Virus record (IMG/VR): IMGVR_UViG_3300001517_000002
Span: 49,448-113,447 of that record
DNA: 64,000 nt
Reading direction: 5' to 3' (one strand)
DNA from: a virus
Taxonomy: Duplodnaviria > Caudoviricetes
Part shown: positions 7,787 through 54,172 of the stretch, piece after piece
Layout of the letters: each line of letters opens with the position of its first letter
How positions within the stretch are numbered: position 1 is the stretch's first letter
Program-made: the position numbers and the translations under genes
Notes under the pieces: generated by a model
The model's database searches: none
Told to the model about the DNA's origin: nothing
Seen by the model: the letters and a program-made list of their open reading frames with translations, nothing else

Positions 7787-8236
7787 TTATTCAGCAATGG
7801 TTACAAGAACTCTTACACCTATAGTAAGGAGCTTCATAACCTTAAAGCAAATGTCACCAGTAGTTGCGGTATCTTTCTTAAACTTAAATGTAGTAGCGTC
7901 AAATGTAAGTGTATCTCCTACTGCAATATCGCCAAATGTACCTTCTATATTCTCCTTTGTTACATCAAGCTCCATACCTTCCCACTTAGAGAGCTTAAAG
8001 AGATTTACATACTCTCCCTGTGCGATAGGATAAGTAAGAGCGTACTCCTTATCACCAACCTGAGTATTAAGAACAATATAAAGTTCCTCGCCACTTGCAG
8101 GAGCTTTAGTTACCTTTGAAGCACCTGTATATGTAAGACCAACAAGTGCGCCATTAATCATATCTGCGTGTGCTGTAACATTAGGGTAGCTATCACCAAA
8201 ATGTTCAATCATCTTCATAGTATGTACCTTTACCAT
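7787..8236 (-). CDS. putative capsid decoration protein
   Basis: 149 aa, beta-rich; between the scaffold and capsid genes. Confidence 0.6.
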   Translation of the reverse strand: MVKVHTMKMIEHFGDSYPNVTAHADMINGALVGLTYTGASKVTKAPASGEELYIVLNTQVGDKEYALTYPIAQGEYVNLFKLSKWEGMELDVTKENIEGTFGDIAVGDTLTFDATTFKFKKDTATTGDICFKVMKLLTIGVRVLVTIAE

Positions 8237-44443: not shown

Positions 44444-45403
44444 ATGTCAGCCAATCTTAATAACCAGAAGTTATGTAATGTTATTGACATATCAAGGCGA
44501 GAATATGATTTTAATGCTTTCATTCCAAGTTCCCATGACAGTTTGTCAGAACAAGAACTTACAGAAATTGAACGAGTAGAAGCTGCGCAGAGAGCTGGTC
44601 AAGGAGATGACGAGTTACCTGTTGGGATATTTAATGACCTTCTAAAATATTTTTTAGATAACCATGATTATCGAAGTGCATTATGGATAACTTTGCAAGC
44701 TAACACTGGATTAAGATATGTTGACATAAGTAAATTTAGGAAGATAGAACTTATAAATGAGAACAATTTATTCCGTGAGTCGATACTTGATAGCGAACAG
44801 AAAACAGGTAAAAAAAGAATTAACTTTATTAATGATGCTATTAAAATGGCGACATTATTATATTTGTGGGACAACCCAGAAATTAAATTACTCGACTATC
44901 TTATTGTTGCTGATAAGAACGCACCCAACAGAGGCTATAAGAAAGAAACGTACATTGATAGTAGAGGAAATAAAAGGGTAAAAAGAGAGAATGGCAAATA
45001 TGTTTATGTTCTCGATTCCAATGGAAATAAAATTATTGAACCACTTTCAATACAATGCGCAAATGAAATTATAAAAAAGGCTCTTGTTGATGGTCTGGGA
45101 ATAGCAATAAGAAATAGTCAGGGGAAAGATGGTTATTTAAAAATAGCTACTCATTCCCTTAGAAAAACATATGCAGGGGCAGTAGTAGACTATTATACAA
45201 GACAGTTTGACACAAACAAAGAGTATGCTCATGCTGCTGCAATGGAACAGCTACAATATGACTTAAATCATAGTAGTCGAAAAATGACATATCACTATAT
45301 CGGTGATTATGTTGAAACTAAACGCTCAATAAATATGAGCATGAATTTAGGGATAGATGTACTCAAACCAGTTTTTGATGTAGAAAAGGAAAAGAGGAAG
45401 TAA
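44444..45403 (+). CDS. tyrosine recombinase
   Basis: TGLRYVD (R), KTGK, HSLRK (HxxR), LNHSS...TYHY (H, Y): catalytic residues intact. Confidence 0.92.
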   Translation: MSANLNNQKLCNVIDISRREYDFNAFIPSSHDSLSEQELTEIERVEAAQRAGQGDDELPVGIFNDLLKYFLDNHDYRSALWITLQANTGLRYVDISKFRKIELINENNLFRESILDSEQKTGKKRINFINDAIKMATLLYLWDNPEIKLLDYLIVADKNAPNRGYKKETYIDSRGNKRVKRENGKYVYVLDSNGNKIIEPLSIQCANEIIKKALVDGLGIAIRNSQGKDGYLKIATHSLRKTYAGAVVDYYTRQFDTNKEYAHAAAMEQLQYDLNHSSRKMTYHYIGDYVETKRSINMSMNLGIDVLKPVFDVEKEKRK

Positions 45404-45907: not shown

Positions 45908-46921
45908 ATGTTATACATGATAGAGGAATACATAAAAGAATATCCCAAAAGACCGCTACAAGCTCTTGAGAAATTTAGAAATTCTCCTTTAAATCTACAT
46001 GAAATGTCATTGAGTGAATTAAACGAAGCAGTTTCAAAATGGAAACCATTGTCAGCAAGAACAGCATATAATCAAAGAAAAGATATTTTAAATTATTTTA
46101 AATGGTTATTGTCCAAAGGGATTAAAGTCGATTTATCTATTGTTGATAAGATTGAAATACCAATTTCCGAGGTAAAGTATTTAATTTTTTCTACACAAGA
46201 TATTATACATTACTATAATTTGCTTTTTTCTGTTTTAACAAATCAGGCTATAAAGAGTGGTAGTCAGTTTAGTGCTAACAGTTATTTGATGAGCTATGCT
46301 GCTGGCATACTTGGATTTCACGGATTGACCGATGAACAAATAATAGAACTTGATTTAACTGACATTACAACAGAAGGTGTTAAAGGATATAATCTTCCTT
46401 TGACCAAAGAAGATATTAACATTTTAATGTCATATAAAGATGTTACCACTTTAGCAAACCATATGCCGCTAATAGGTAGTAAATATATTCGTTCTTCTCG
46501 TGGAATTGACAACATTGATGGAGCATTTTTATCTCGTCCACTTTGGCGATTAAAGCTGCCAGAGGAATATGGCTATTTAAAAAATTTATTAAGAGTGCAA
46601 AATCTTTATCAGCTTGGAGTGTATAATCGAATATATGAGCTTGAGAAAAGCACAGGGGAAATCGTTACATTAGGTGGGATTACGCCCTTGTGGTTTAAAA
46701 AAATTATTGGCAAAGCAGAAATGGCTATTACTATCAACAAAAAAAGATATATACAATACAAACATGACCGTGAAGAAGCACAGTCGGACATCCAGAAAGA
46801 AATAATTACAAGCGAATATATATCAAAGCAAGAATTAGAAAAGAAGTATGATGAGCTTTTGCAACGCCGAAGGGAGCTTGATAAAGAAATTCAAGAATTA
46901 CAAGAAATGGTTAAAAAATAA
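45908..46921 (+). CDS. degenerate recombinase-fold protein, MrpR/YopR-like repressor candidate
   Basis: SAM-like ILNYFKW; box I-like LGFHGLTDEQIIELDLTDI lacking the catalytic Arg; no HxxR. Confidence 0.55.
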   Translation: MLYMIEEYIKEYPKRPLQALEKFRNSPLNLHEMSLSELNEAVSKWKPLSARTAYNQRKDILNYFKWLLSKGIKVDLSIVDKIEIPISEVKYLIFSTQDIIHYYNLLFSVLTNQAIKSGSQFSANSYLMSYAAGILGFHGLTDEQIIELDLTDITTEGVKGYNLPLTKEDINILMSYKDVTTLANHMPLIGSKYIRSSRGIDNIDGAFLSRPLWRLKLPEEYGYLKNLLRVQNLYQLGVYNRIYELEKSTGEIVTLGGITPLWFKKIIGKAEMAITINKKRYIQYKHDREEAQSDIQKEIITSEYISKQELEKKYDELLQRRRELDKEIQELQEMVKK

Positions 46922-46938
46922 AAATATTCATTTTGTAC

Positions 46939-46967
46939 TTGACAAGGTACAAAAAGTATGCTATAAT
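46939..46967 (+). promoter_or_regulatory. sigma-A promoter of the tRNA array with operator boxes
   Basis: TTGACA-17 bp-TATAAT; boxes at 46929(-), 46947 (1 mismatch), 47021 and 47060. Confidence 0.85.
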
Positions 46968-47076: not shown

Positions 47077-47151
47077 TAGGGTATAGCAAAGAGGTAATGC
47101 AACGGGCTTTGACCCCGTAATTCGCCAGTTCAAATCTGGCTGCCCTAACCA
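47077..47151 (+). tRNA. tRNA-Gln(TTG)
   Basis: ACGGG-CT TTG AC-CCCGT; CCA. Confidence 0.88.
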
Positions 47152-47304
47152 TCGTTCCAACAGGTTAAAAGGAAGCCAAAAGCAATGAGCCTGACATCAA
47201 GCTTCGGGGCGAGGCATACGTTCTATAGGGGATAATGTGACAGTGCAAACTCCAATATATGCTTAATGACTCACTGTATGACGGCTCGGAAAGACGAGCA
47301 TAAC

Positions 47305-47364
47305 GACTCACTTGATAATAGACCTCCTCGTGGTGTGAGTTGGGTAACGCTAAGATATTATCAA
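47305..47364 (+). ncRNA. minimal HDV-like (theta-type) ribozyme
   Basis: P1 GACTCAC/GTGAGTT, P2 TTGATAATA/TATTATCAA, P3 ACC/GGT, L3 TCCTCGT, GG, GCTAA with the catalytic C. Confidence 0.85.
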
Positions 47365-47415
47365 ATTTCTTTTACTATTCTTTTTCTGATTGCGGTGAGA
47401 AATCACCGCACAAAT

Positions 47416-47490
47416 GGGAGTGTAGCTCAGTGGTAGAGCAATTGCCTTTTAAGCAATAGGTCGAGGGTTCGATGCCCTTCACTCTCACCA
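47416..47490 (+). tRNA. tRNA-Lys(TTT)
   Basis: ATTGC-CT TTT AA-GCAAT; CCA. Confidence 0.93.
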
Positions 47491-47495
47491 ATTAT

Positions 47496-47581
47496 CTGGA
47501 CGTAGCTCAGTTGGGAGAGCACTACAATAGTTTATGATAGAAATGTAGAGGTCGCTTGTTCAAGCCAAGCCGTTCAGACCA
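47496..47581 (+). tRNA. tRNA-like RNA with a 17-nt anticodon loop (identity undetermined)
   Basis: Acceptor, D and T arms and CCA intact; CTACA-[17 nt]-TGTAG. Confidence 0.75.
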
Positions 47582-47814
47582 AGGGGTTAACCCCCTCATC
47601 AATATATACCATAGATACAAACAACTCTGGCTTCCTCTGAGATGAAGGTTGAAACAATAATGGCGTGGTCGCTTCTTTAGAGATGATATGGCTCAGAAGT
47701 CCTTTGCTTCAGCATAAAAGACCTTAACTAAATGACAATGATATATTGGCGCATTGGGGTTGTGATGATAATAAAGGAGGGAAAACATCACATAGTTTGT
47801 ATCAAAATAAAAAT

Positions 47815-47900
47815 GCTCCTGTGGTGGAACTGGCAGACGCAAGGGACTTAAAATCCCTCGGGTGAAACCCGTATCGGTTCGAGTCCGATTAGGAGCACCA
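47815..47900 (+). tRNA. tRNA-Leu(TAA)
   Basis: AGGGA-CT TAA AA-TCCCT; long variable arm; CCA. Confidence 0.93.
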
Positions 47901-48107
47901 ATACTTCAAAAGCGGTGTGGCAACATTATTTAAATAAGGGAAACGATGGGTATACGAAACTTATTTGGTAATGATAAAATGGATAAAATGTAAAGCCATC
48001 AAATCGTTCTTGACTATGGGCAAACCTGTAGAAGTAGCTACCTACGGAAACCAGCAAAAAGAACACAAATCTTGCATAAGTTACACGCTCTTATGCAAGC
48101 AAATCAT

Positions 48108-48184
48108 CTGGATTTAACTCAGTTTGGTAGAGTGCTTGCTTTGGGAGCAAGATGCCGCAGGTTCGAGTCCTGTAATCCAGACCA
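48108..48184 (+). tRNA. tRNA-Pro(TGG)
   Basis: CTTGC-TT TGG GA-GCAAG; CCA. Confidence 0.92.
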
Positions 48185-48389
48185 ATTGGATTAAGAAGAT
48201 GCAATATCAAATGAATAGGAATGTATATCGTGGTGGAGGTAGACTGTGGTTTACGCAAAGGACGAGAATTATTTAATTCAATATTTGATAGAGGTGGTTG
48301 CATTGCCTCCGCTTAATCCATTACCAAAATCTTCGTTATGTCTTTGGCATAACTGACCTCCTTCAGCCCGTAGTTGCTACGGGCAATAT

Positions 48390-48465
48390 GGGACAGTAGC
48401 AGAATTGGCATATGCGGTAGTCTCAAAAACTACGTCATTTATGGGTTCGACTCCCATCTGTCCCA
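48390..48465 (+). tRNA. tRNA-Leu(CAA), short variable region, no encoded CCA
   Basis: GTAGT-CT CAA AA-ACTAC; GGGACAG/CTGTCCC acceptor stem. Confidence 0.8.
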
Positions 48466-48605
48466 CTACTACATTTTTATAGGAGGAATAACCAAATGAA
48501 TAAATGCGTTTGTTGCGGAGCTATAATTCCAGAAGGAACTTTGGTCTGCTTTATTTGTTTGCATAAAAATAATTTTTATAAAATCAATTATAGGAGGTAA
48601 TCTTA

Positions 48606-49103
48606 ATGACCAACAATGAAAAGATTCAAAAAGCAGAACAGCTTATCGCAGAAGCTAATGCACTTCTTAATGAAGTTAAATCTACCTATGATAATAAGAA
48701 AGATGTGATTGCTAAGTATAAAGAAGATTATTGTAAAGGTAAGAAATATTATATTAATGATGATAGTAATACCAGTTGGATTGTCACTCCTAATGCGTAT
48801 ACATTTAAAAACACTTCAAATCCTTATAAATTTTATCTTACAGAAGAACTTGCTGAACAGGCAAAGAAACTGAAAGACTTCAATGATAAACTGCTGGCTT
48901 TTAAATATTGTTATGATTTAGATTATAAGCCCAGTTGGGATAACGATTGTCAAAAGTATTATATTTATTATAGTACAGTTGATAACGAATACCACGCTGA
49001 CGGTTTATCTTCTATGCGTGAACCATTAGTTTATTTTAGCACCAAGGAAATCGCACAGAAATGTGCAGACTGGCTTAATTCATTTAAGGAGGTTGAAAGT
49101 TAA
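48606..49103 (+). CDS. hypothetical protein
   Basis: AGGAGGT RBS; VYFSTKEIAQKC. Confidence 0.8.
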   Translation: MTNNEKIQKAEQLIAEANALLNEVKSTYDNKKDVIAKYKEDYCKGKKYYINDDSNTSWIVTPNAYTFKNTSNPYKFYLTEELAEQAKKLKDFNDKLLAFKYCYDLDYKPSWDNDCQKYYIYYSTVDNEYHADGLSSMREPLVYFSTKEIAQKCADWLNSFKEVES

Positions 49104-49107
49104 TCTG

Positions 49108-50205
49108 GTGGCAAACAGAGCGTATAAATTTAGGCTATATCCTAATGAAGAACAAAAGATATTATTTGCCAAAACCTTTGGTTGTGTTAGATTTATCTAC
49201 AATCAAATGCTTTCGGATAAGATAGCACATTATAAAGAAACTGGAACGAAGCTCAACAATACTCCTGCTCAATACAAGAAAGAATTTGAGTGGCTTAAAG
49301 AAGTTGACAGCCTTGCTCTCGCAAACGCACAAATGAATTTACAGACCGCTTATAACAATTTCTTCAGGACACCAAAAGTTGGATTTCCTAAATTCAAGAG
49401 TAAAAAGAGAGACAGGGATAGTTATACTACAAACAATCAAAATGGTACAGTAAGTATTATTGAGAAGAAATTAAGGTTGCCAAAGGTTGGTCTTGTAAAA
49501 ATGGTGCAACACAGAATAATTTCAGACAACGAAAAGATTAAGTCTGCTACAATTACAAGAACACCATCGGGCAAATATTATGTTTCTATTCTTGTGGAAT
49601 ATGATAAGGTTGTTCCCAATGTAGAATTATCAAGGGATAAGGCGATAGGATTAGATTATGCAAGTCATAGCTTTTATGTCGATAGTCAAGGCAGAGAAGC
49701 AGATTATCCCAAATTCTATCGTAAAGCACAAGCTAAACTGGCTCACGAACAGCGCAAACTTGCTAATATGAAGTATGGTAGTAATAACTACTACAAACAG
49801 AAGATTAGGGTTGCGAGAGTTCACGAAAAGGTTGCAAATCAGCGTTTGGATTGGATTCATAAACTCAGTACACAATTAGCAAATGAATACGATATAGTTT
49901 GTGTGGAAGATATAAATATGCAAAATATGGCGAGGTCATTAAAATTAGGAAAGTCAACTAATGACAATGGCTTTGGAATGTTCAGAGATATTCTTTCCTA
50001 CAAACTCACTGACAGAGGAAAAGCATTTGTAAAGATTGATAAGTGGTTTCCGTCAAGCAAGATGTGTAGGCATTGTGGTTCTATCAACCACGAGCTTGCG
50101 CTATCAGACAGAGTTTGGACTTGCAGTTGCGGTACTACAATCAATCGAGATGAAAATGCTGCGATAAACATAATGAACGAAGGTTTGAGAATGTTATTCT
50201 CATAA
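49108..50205 (+). CDS. tnpB: IS200/IS605-family RNA-guided endonuclease TnpB
   Basis: AYKFRLYP HTH; RuvC D (GLDY), E (VEDI), D (RDENAA); CRHC/CSC zinc ribbon; probable GTG start at 49108. Confidence 0.93.
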   Translation: MANRAYKFRLYPNEEQKILFAKTFGCVRFIYNQMLSDKIAHYKETGTKLNNTPAQYKKEFEWLKEVDSLALANAQMNLQTAYNNFFRTPKVGFPKFKSKKRDRDSYTTNNQNGTVSIIEKKLRLPKVGLVKMVQHRIISDNEKIKSATITRTPSGKYYVSILVEYDKVVPNVELSRDKAIGLDYASHSFYVDSQGREADYPKFYRKAQAKLAHEQRKLANMKYGSNNYYKQKIRVARVHEKVANQRLDWIHKLSTQLANEYDIVCVEDINMQNMARSLKLGKSTNDNGFGMFRDILSYKLTDRGKAFVKIDKWFPSSKMCRHCGSINHELALSDRVWTCSCGTTINRDENAAINIMNEGLRMLFS

Positions 50206-50330
50206 TCGAATAGAAGAACCGTAAGGACTACGGGGATAGCTCGTTGATACTGGTAGCAATAGCTACCTTGGGCGAGAAGCCCGTTGACTTTAGACGATGG
50301 GTAGTTCGTGGAGGAAATATAAAATGATAT
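50206..50330 (+). ncRNA. TnpB omegaRNA scaffold / right end plus putative guide
   Basis: GGGGATAGC...GAAGCCC-hairpin-GGGTAGTTC, typical of IS605/IS1341-type right ends. Confidence 0.7.
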
Positions 50331-50356
50331 TTATTAAAATGAGGAGGAAATAAAAA

Positions 50357-53275: not shown

Positions 53276-54172
53276 ATGAATCATAAGAAGTTTATGGATA
53301 TTGAAAGAATCAAGGAAAACATTATAGGTGGATTTGAAGTAGGCAATCATATAGTTATACAGGAGAAGATTGATGGAGCTAATGCAGCTATCAGATATGA
53401 TAGTGAAACAAATACTGTCGTAGCTCAGAGCCGTAAAAATATACTTAATATATCAAACAACCTTAGAGGGTTTTATGAATGGACACAGACACTTAATGCA
53501 GATAAAGTAAGAGAGGTTCTTGGAGATAATCTTATATTGTTTGGAGAATGGCTTGTGCCACATAGCGTTAAATATCCCAATGATAAATATAATCATGCTT
53601 ATTTTTATGATATTTATGATACAGCAACAGAATCTTATCTCGCACAGAATATTGTAAAAGAGAAGGTTGATGCTCTTAGTCTTATTTATGTTCCAGTTTT
53701 TTATGATGGACTGTTTGAATCTTGGGAGCATTGTTATTCATTTGTAGGCAAGACTAAAATGGGTGGCGAATATGGAGAAGGCATTGTAATAAAGAATCAA
53801 ACAAAGCTGAATGACCCCAACTCTCGTACTCCATACTATATTAAAATTGTTGGTGAAAAATTTCAAGAAACTCACGAGCATCATAAAAAGGAAGTTTCAC
53901 CAGAACAAATAAAGGCACTTGAAGAAAATAAAATCCTGTGCGAAACTATTGTTACAGAAGCGAGAGTAACTAAGATACTTCACAAGCTGGTCGATGAAGG
54001 TATTCTTCCTGAGAATTGGGGTGCATCTGAAATGCCAATCGTAGCAAGAAATCTTTGTAAAAGAGTATTTGAGGATTGTCAGAAAGAAGAACCAGAAACA
54101 ACAGCTAAGATTGAAAACTTTGGTAAGGTTGCGAACTCAATTTGTATGAGCATTGCAAGAAAGCTCATATGA
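53276..54172 (+). CDS. RNA ligase (Rnl2-like nucleotidyltransferase)
   Basis: EKIDGAN, FGEW, FYDI, EGIVIK, IK motifs. Confidence 0.85.
   Translation: MNHKKFMDIERIKENIIGGFEVGNHIVIQEKIDGANAAIRYDSETNTVVAQSRKNILNISNNLRGFYEWTQTLNADKVREVLGDNLILFGEWLVPHSVKYPNDKYNHAYFYDIYDTATESYLAQNIVKEKVDALSLIYVPVFYDGLFESWEHCYSFVGKTKMGGEYGEGIVIKNQTKLNDPNSRTPYYIKIVGEKFQETHEHHKKEVSPEQIKALEENKILCETIVTEARVTKILHKLVDEGILPENWGASEMPIVARNLCKRVFEDCQKEEPETTAKIENFGKVANSICMSIARKLI

Follow-up and report, generated by a model that had tools for sequence, protein, structure and literature searches.

The tRNA genes of phages have come to be regarded as weapons against defences with which hosts cut tRNAs. What, if anything, does a phage gain from a tRNA gene that has a perfect tRNA body and only one fault, a loop too large to decode? 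Such a gene, close to the simplest variant of this theme, lies in a tRNA array of the 64,000-nucleotide stretch of DNA analysed here (the window). The IMG/VR virus record from which the window comes has 113,447 bp and direct terminal repeats, and the window covers its right-hand 64 kb. Standard annotation misses genes of this kind, and ARAGORN with default settings did not call this one. If its RNA is stable and has a role, a tRNA body alone would be useful to the phage, as a decoy, a sponge or a processing signal. If the gene is no more than a disabled tRNA, it would single out the anticodon loop as a site at which these arrays are prone to rearrange. If the extra nucleotides are spliced out, a tRNA splicing pathway would exist in bacterial viruses that needs neither a ribozyme nor a bulge-helix-bulge (BHB) endonuclease.

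A secreted dockerin gene adjoins the region, and among cultured phages a conserved 677-aa protein has its nearest relatives in a Clostridioides phage and in large Bacillus myoviruses (58-60% identity). By these two observations, the DNA probably comes from a large phage whose hosts are Firmicutes of the gut or rumen.

Structure of the odd tRNA gene

Read directly, the gene (Table 1) has an acceptor stem of seven pairs (CTGGACG/CGTTCAG), including one G-U pair at 4:69, a D stem of four pairs (GCTC/GAGC) closed by the D loop AGTTGGGA with G18 and G19, an anticodon stem of five pairs (CTACA/TGTAG) and a T stem of five pairs (GCTTG/CAAGC) with the T loop TTCAAGC. U8, A9 and A26 are present, the variable loop is AGGTC, a G15-C48 pair can form, and the discriminator A73 is followed by an encoded CCA. 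The minimum free energy (MFE) fold is a cloverleaf. The Rfam tRNA model (RF00005) matches the gene end to end, over model positions 1-71, with 47.8 bits (E 6e-10; the gathering score of the model is 29 bits); the match was not listed in an earlier, wider Rfam run. In the Rfam alignment, 17 nt stand in place of the 7-nt loop and are treated as an insertion, and ARAGORN in intron mode calls the gene with a 10-nt "intron". A previous reading of the locus, made from the sequence only, had described four paired stems, an encoded CCA and a 17-nt anticodon loop with 10 extra nucleotides, and each of these points is borne out by the direct reading, the Rfam score and the ARAGORN insert.

The gene clearly derives from a tRNA, far beyond what chance would produce. 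It has the four-stem cloverleaf of a tRNA, above the Rfam cut-off, and lacks the other hallmark, a 7-nt loop with U33, an anticodon at 34-36 and a purine at 37. Folding revealed no stable internal structure in the 17-nt loop, and no position in it is readable as an anticodon with confidence. The RNA is almost certainly unable to read codons.

From which tRNA did it arise? The sequence-only reading had noted that C1-G72 and A73 are as in the tRNA-Pro(UGG) at 48108, and the resemblance holds: the first five acceptor pairs of the two genes are the same except for G4-U69 in the odd gene and G4-C69 in the tRNA-Pro. This Pro-like acceptor does not fix the parent isoacceptor, because the tRNA-Lys genes of related phages likewise begin with C1-G72 and carry A73.

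Table 1. Features at and around the odd tRNA gene, in window coordinates.
Feature	Position	Strand	Basis
Consensus sigma-70-type promoter (TTGACA, 17 nt, TGnTATAAT) ahead of the tRNA array	46939-46967	+	
tRNA-Lys(UUU), canonical, 5 nt upstream of the odd tRNA	47416-47490	+	
Odd tRNA gene, 86 nt, encoded CCA	47496-47581	+	direct read; ARAGORN intron mode; Rfam tRNA model; MFE fold
Its 17-nt AU-rich anticodon loop, ATAGTTTATGATAGAAA	47527-47543	+	direct read
Palindromic hairpin GGGGTTAACCCC, starting one base past the CCA of the odd tRNA	47583-47596	+	
Rnl2-family RNA ligase gene	53276-54172	+	PF09414 86 bits; phrog_548

The tRNA array and its surroundings

Eight tRNA-type genes are found in the genome, and six of them form an array at 47077-48466 in the order Gln(UUG), Lys(UUU), odd gene, Leu(UAA), Pro(UGG), Leu(CAA). 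A promoter lies ahead of the array, and no terminator-like site was found on the + strand inside it, up to its end; from this arrangement, the odd gene is probably co-transcribed with its neighbours. The tRNA-Lys and the odd gene are conserved as one block in a sister phage, which is described below. The hairpin just behind the CCA is replaced in the sister phage by another one, GTCTTAT..ATAAGAC.

The spacer after the odd gene (47582-47814) is 233 nt long in the window and 61 nt long in the sister phage. The extra ~170 nt contain a hairpin, TGTGATG...CATCACA, whose loop exposes AAAGGAGGG, a Shine-Dalgarno-like word with no start codon behind it. Just upstream of the tRNA-Lys, Rfam weakly matches positions 47305-47362 with an HDV-like ribozyme, at 29.3 bits (E 0.007) where the cut-off is 44; the block 47279-47415 is near-identical in the sister phage, and the sequence preceding it has been replaced. 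Directly upstream of the array promoter, in every relative found, stands a gene for a 337-aa protein with no Pfam family (45908-46921), and the gene before it (44444-45403) has a weak tyrosine-recombinase match (phrog_216). This pair of possible recombinase genes next to a tRNA array of mosaic structure may have to do with cassette exchange. On the other side, between the array and the gene of the 677-aa protein, an insertion at 49092-50342 carries a TnpB/IS605-type transposase (phrog_506, E 7e-120; ORF 49063-50205) and is absent from the sister phage and from the relatives at loci L006 and L007.

A sister copy of the odd gene

Could the long loop be an assembly error, an alternative that the sequence-only reading had raised? 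Exact-pattern scans revealed only one further copy of the odd tRNA, in IMGVR_UViG_3300031760_000347 (contig Ga0326513_10000531), an independent assembly in which the neighbouring genes are ~95% identical to those of the window. This sister copy is also 86 nt long and its loop, ATAGTTTATAAAAGGAA, is also of 17 nt, which excludes the assembly error. Since the 17-nt loop is found in both phages, the insertion predates their split. The two copies differ at three positions of the loop, within its 3' half, and at one position of the 69-nt body (T-loop position 60), leaving all stem pairs unchanged. ARAGORN by default calls the sister copy as "tRNA-Cys(ACA)", a poor alternative fold that we rejected.

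How widespread is the gene? Patterns built on the body, the acceptor stem and the D and T arms showed the sister contig alone to carry the odd tRNA in IMG/VR; the same patterns gave one unrelated tRNA-Pro with a matching acceptor stem. JGI metagenomes returned the same sister contig again, together with unrelated tRNA-Ala genes with normal loops, and no new copy. There was no copy in GTDB genomes, where the matches were normal 7-nt-loop tRNAs of unrelated bacteria, and no relative among GenBank phages; a "tRNA-OTHER" match in Acinetobacter phage ME3 proved to be unrelated. In G005 (locus L006), the next complete relative, the array is smaller and different and contains no odd tRNA, so that the gene is dispensable. 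A tRNA-Pro(UGG) at L071:2528-2617 (IMGVR_UViG_3300048591_001028) has an acceptor stem as in the odd tRNA and, with an unusual 17-nt variable arm, a total length of 90 nt.

Does the comparison of the two copies reveal selection? The arrays of the window and the sister phage are mosaics of near-identical blocks and wholly replaced blocks. Differences amount to 14/567 in the alignable spacers (2.5%), 4/238 in three true tRNAs, 1/69 in the body of the odd tRNA and 3/17 in its loop. Under the spacer divergence of 2.5%, 69 nt would show at most one change with a probability of 0.49. With only two copies that are ~2.5% apart, the conserved body is thus no evidence of selection. The sequence-only reading had taken the intact stems to speak against simple decay; because a single body change is what neutrality predicts, this argument has no power and the intact stems carry no weight on selection. 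The loop, on the other hand, is more changed than the spacers (3/17 vs 14/567, p about 0.008), and its three changes, which fall within 6 nt, may be a single event.

Odd tRNA bodies and broken anticodon arms in relatives

More distant relatives were reached via the conserved 337-aa gene upstream of the array, and a homologue search with its protein gave 22 relatives. Two of the more distant relatives have odd tRNA bodies. At L196:6440-6543, right after a tRNA-Gln, a 36-nt AU-rich loop is carried on a 5-bp stem (Rfam tRNA model, 47.9 bits). At L202:6742-6852, after a tRNA-Gln and a tRNA-Lys, ~60 nt stand in place of the anticodon arm, among them a CAGCAA word and a hairpin of 7 bp (CTATCTT/AAGATAG); this element scores 49.3 bits with the Rfam tRNA model and is not called by ARAGORN. 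Both bodies are unrelated in sequence to the odd tRNA of the window, and both lie early in the corresponding array. Four other relatives have no tRNA gene with an odd anticodon arm. When IMG/VR was scanned with a pattern built on one common D arm, many tRNA bodies with odd middle parts were found. Most of the matches are giant-virus tRNAs with eukaryote-type introns, and dozens are phage tRNA bodies in which the anticodon arm is replaced by hairpins, some of them capped, or by other sequence. The odd bodies at the array and in IMG/VR favour a real class of non-decoding tRNA look-alikes.

Other forms were seen on the way. Six smaller phage contigs (L106, L128, L142, L143, L168 and L182; for example L106:2422-2499, minus strand) have a lone tRNA-like gene without CCA whose 11-nt anticodon loop is CAATATACCGT, with two variable positions. 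In L139 and L075, the anticodon arm of a tRNA body is a long hairpin capped by a tetraloop.

Breaks within the anticodon arm are also found in this clade. At L006:6928-7720 and L005:~7900-7960, the first ~27 nt of a tRNA-Gln of the window type are kept and followed by different sequence, the remnant stopping at the 5' strand of the anticodon stem. In L006, the remnant is followed by a Gln-like anticodon arm (CTTTGAC) in a possible tRNA-like fold with a non-standard T loop (GGCAGAA), and then by an ORF of ~210 aa that is homing-endonuclease-like by eye only. The pattern in the two loci looks like repeated recombination at the anticodon arm. A further arrangement is found at L064:14906-15051 (IMGVR_UViG_3300045988_136318), where a complete tRNA-Asn(GUU), GGGAAGT...ACTTCCC G CCA, is nested in the anticodon loop of an outer tRNA. 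The outer tRNA is well formed (acceptor GTTCCAG/CTGGAAC, A73, CCA). The inner tRNA lies between CCTTT and AA of the outer loop, which without it would be CCUUUAA with the anticodon UUU, and by this anticodon we judge the outer tRNA to be Lys-like. When the whole is folded, the MFE structure is a double cloverleaf (z -2.5). Release of the inner tRNA by RNase P and 3' trimming would give halves with a 3'-OH and a 5'-P, and an Rnl2-family ligase is encoded on the same contig. In IMG/VR, an exact-pattern scan revealed no other copy of the nested tRNA. Because of the tRNA-Gln remnants and the nested tRNA, anticodon arms can be read as places of breaking and rejoining, and they look like rearrangement hot spots in the arrays of this clade; such breaks in relatives favour the view that the odd tRNA is a scar.

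Comparison with known tRNAs and tRNA-like RNAs

The odd gene shares with a canonical elongator tRNA (RF00005) the cloverleaf, the conserved nucleotides of the D and T loops, the discriminator, the CCA and the location in a phage tRNA array, and differs from it in having a loop of 17 nt instead of 7. Phages T4 (species 1 and 2 RNAs) and T5 (RNA1 and RNA2) produce stable tRNA-like RNAs from their tRNA clusters; these are non-decoding and tRNA-derived, are co-transcribed with the phage tRNAs and processed at tRNA-like ends, and are longer, with rebuilt middle parts, and their function remained unknown for decades. The odd gene finds a place in a loose class of this T4/T5 type, whose members lie in a phage tRNA cluster and combine acceptor and T arms like those of a tRNA with an anticodon region that is not canonical. 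Unlike the T4 and T5 RNAs, it retains a 5-bp anticodon stem of the normal kind and differs only by 10 additional bases in the loop. No sequence relationship of the odd tRNA to any other tRNA-like gene was found.

Extra bases in the anticodon loop are a feature shared with intron-containing tRNA genes, both the archaeal and eukaryal ones of the BHB type and the bacterial ones with group I introns, whereas the odd tRNA comes without BHB pairing or an endonuclease, and its 10 nt hold no group I core. YrlA-type Y RNAs (RF02553), which are bound by Ro60/Rsr, are likewise tRNA mimics of bacteria and phages, but the layout of the odd tRNA is not permuted. The YrlA model scores 25.3 bits against a cut-off of 69, in a match that spans two genes, and no TROVE/Ro60 gene (PF05731) was found in this phage or in four relatives; a Y RNA with a Ro60 partner was rejected on these grounds.

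Phage tRNAs that evade nucleases form the remaining group. The tRNA-Lys of T5 escapes or neutralises PARIS (PMC11464382), and phage tRNAs act against retron effectors (PMC11555353). Like these tRNAs, the odd gene is phage-encoded and has an altered anticodon loop, and it lies beside a tRNA-Lys(UUU). Nuclease-evading phage tRNAs, however, keep a 7-nt loop with point changes, decode, and rescue translation rather than act as decoys, whereas the loop of the odd tRNA has 17 nt.

What is the odd gene?

Might the loop still yield an anticodon? One way would be splicing: the 10 extra loop nucleotides would be cut out by host or phage nucleases and the halves sealed by the Rnl2-like ligase to give a decoding tRNA. 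The sequence-only reading had pointed to a phage RNA ligase in this context, and the gene is indeed present, 5.7 kb downstream of an odd tRNA that ARAGORN accepts in its intron mode. By our own reading, removal of loop positions 6-15, 7-16 or 8-17 would place all differences from the sister copy within the "intron" and leave AGU in both phages, as expected of a splice near the canonical 37/38 site. The splice drawn by ARAGORN, however, gives AGA in the window phage and AGG in the sister, and neither the AGA/AGG nor the AGU reading has independent support. All the candidate anticodons start with A34, which is rare in bacteria, and for AGU the C1-G72 acceptor is not known to fit threonine identity. 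As to the machinery, there is no BHB pairing between loop and "intron": inspection revealed no 4-bp helix that would join loop positions 32-37 to the insert's 3' portion, nor does the fold contain one. A group I catalytic core takes about 200 nt or more, far above the 10 nt of the insert, and Rfam gave no group I intron (RF00028) at the locus. The phage genome encodes no splicing endonuclease (PF01974, for which control genomes gave matches), RtcB, Rnl1 or 2H phosphoesterase. Nor does the ligase follow odd tRNAs among relatives, as an Rnl2-like ligase is present in the complete relative without the odd tRNA (G005), and another complete relative, G003, has an odd tRNA-like gene and no such ligase; we take the ligase gene as context only. 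We know of no protein-dependent short tRNA intron in bacteria or phages. An intron-containing tRNA is therefore very improbable in our view. Processing of the nested tRNA in L064 would leave halves that an Rnl2-family ligase could join, and a protein-dependent mini-intron might be part of a habit of this clade of interrupting anticodon loops, the nested tRNA included; this, too, we consider very improbable. The other way to an anticodon would be a lengthened anticodon stem, in which UUU (loop positions 5-7) pairs with AAA (15-17), AUAG is bulged and an inner 7-nt loop, AUGAUAG, offers U33, the anticodon GAU and A37. As we read the two copies, each of them allows the pairing, as UUU/AAA in the window and as UUU/GAA in the sister, whose A-to-G change keeps a U-G pair, and both have U33 and A37 in the inner loop. 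Yet ViennaRNA does not choose this pairing, the arm alone being worth about -1 kcal/mol, no better than shuffled sequences, and the inner "anticodon" would differ between the two phages, GAU as against AAA. Three extra pairs and a 4-nt bulge should not fit the fixed distance from anticodon to acceptor in the ribosome. A decoding tRNA of this form is hardly credible.

We tentatively favour the view that the odd gene is an expressed, non-decoding tRNA look-alike that is kept for a role depending on its body. In outline, the gene would be transcribed together with the tRNA array from the promoter at 46939, and its intact acceptor, D and T arms would allow RNase P and the 3' trimming enzymes to excise the RNA as they do any tRNA. 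This would yield an L-shaped RNA of 86 nt with ACCA at its end. Its unstructured, AU-rich loop of 17 nt would present no anticodon in the ribosome, so that the RNA would not decode and would be kept for something that needs only a tRNA body. In the version that we prefer, this mimic would occupy a host factor that recognises tRNA bodies, for example a tRNA-cleaving defence nuclease aimed at tRNA-Lys, the direct neighbour of the odd tRNA. Besides splicing, the sequence-only reading had proposed a decoy for anticodon nucleases or tRNA-sensing defences and an aminoacyl carrier used outside the ribosome; either may apply, and the odd tRNA bodies at the corresponding array position in L196 and L202 lend the two proposals indirect support. 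The anatomy of the gene, its place in an array and its presence in two phages are matters of observation, whereas its expression, its processing, its loss of decoding and any role are what we infer from them.

What distinguishes such a look-alike from a tRNA that has simply been broken? It is also a serious possibility that the odd gene is a young disabled tRNA or a rearrangement scar, in which decoding was killed by a 10-nt insertion or a rearrangement shortly before the two phages split; its RNA may still be made and processed, would have no selected role, and would in time decay or be lost. The flawless body (47.8 bits) and a sole defect at the place where an insertion spares both folding and processing suit a look-alike, as does the position of the gene inside a promoter-driven array without an internal terminator. 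The sister phage keeps the gene, the loop length and all stem pairs, but the copies are two only and ~2.5% apart, a distance at which an intact body is expected without any selection (P = 0.49). Likewise, the unstructured, AU-rich loop, whose 3' half varies, fits junk as well as a look-alike. It has no detectable target: the phage genome contains no site complementary to the loop that is longer than those given by shuffled loops, and an antisense role was rejected for lack of a target above chance. Plain neutrality does not account for the faster change of the loop relative to the spacers (p about 0.008), unless the loop changes are a single event, and a random 10-nt insertion would hit a 7-nt loop only in about 1 in 10 cases. 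The surroundings can be read both ways. The array is in flux, with segments replaced wholesale between the two phages and a TnpB-type element in one of them only, a 5' fragment of tRNA-Gln is broken at the anticodon arm in L005 and L006, and a whole tRNA sits inside the anticodon loop of another in L064, all of which would suit a scar. On the other side, the combination of an intact top half and an altered anticodon arm recurs at the corresponding array position in three diverged lineages, including the unrelated bodies of L196 and L202, in unrelated sequences, which counts against a disabled tRNA, and dozens of phage tRNA bodies in IMG/VR have replaced anticodon arms. The stable tRNA-like RNAs of T4 and T5 speak for a look-alike as well. 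Absence of the gene from the closest complete relative suits a disabled tRNA, and counts, as dispensability, against a look-alike, as does the missing gene for a Ro60 partner. Phage tRNAs are known counter-measures to defences that cleave tRNA-Lys (PMC11464382, PMC11555353), a precedent for a look-alike aimed at such a defence. A nuclease decoy would nevertheless be expected to copy the 7-nt loop of its target, which the 17-nt loop does not, and the specific proposal that the odd RNA is a decoy or mimic of tRNA for a tRNA-targeting factor is rather unlikely.

Other altered tRNA genes in the relatives

ARAGORN in intron mode found further tRNA bodies with insertions in the anticodon loop among the relatives. 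At L055:9571-9880 and L064:9579-9886, and likewise at L055:6065-6271(-) and L064:6074-6280(-), the loop contains a conserved insert of ~217 nt. The inserts are not called by Rfam at gathering score; elsewhere in the L055 and L064 loci, Rfam identifies group I introns on the minus strand. Finally, a tRNA with the anticodon CUA, that is, an amber suppressor, and a long variable arm is located at L054:8947-9034, which hints at recoding of TAG in that phage.
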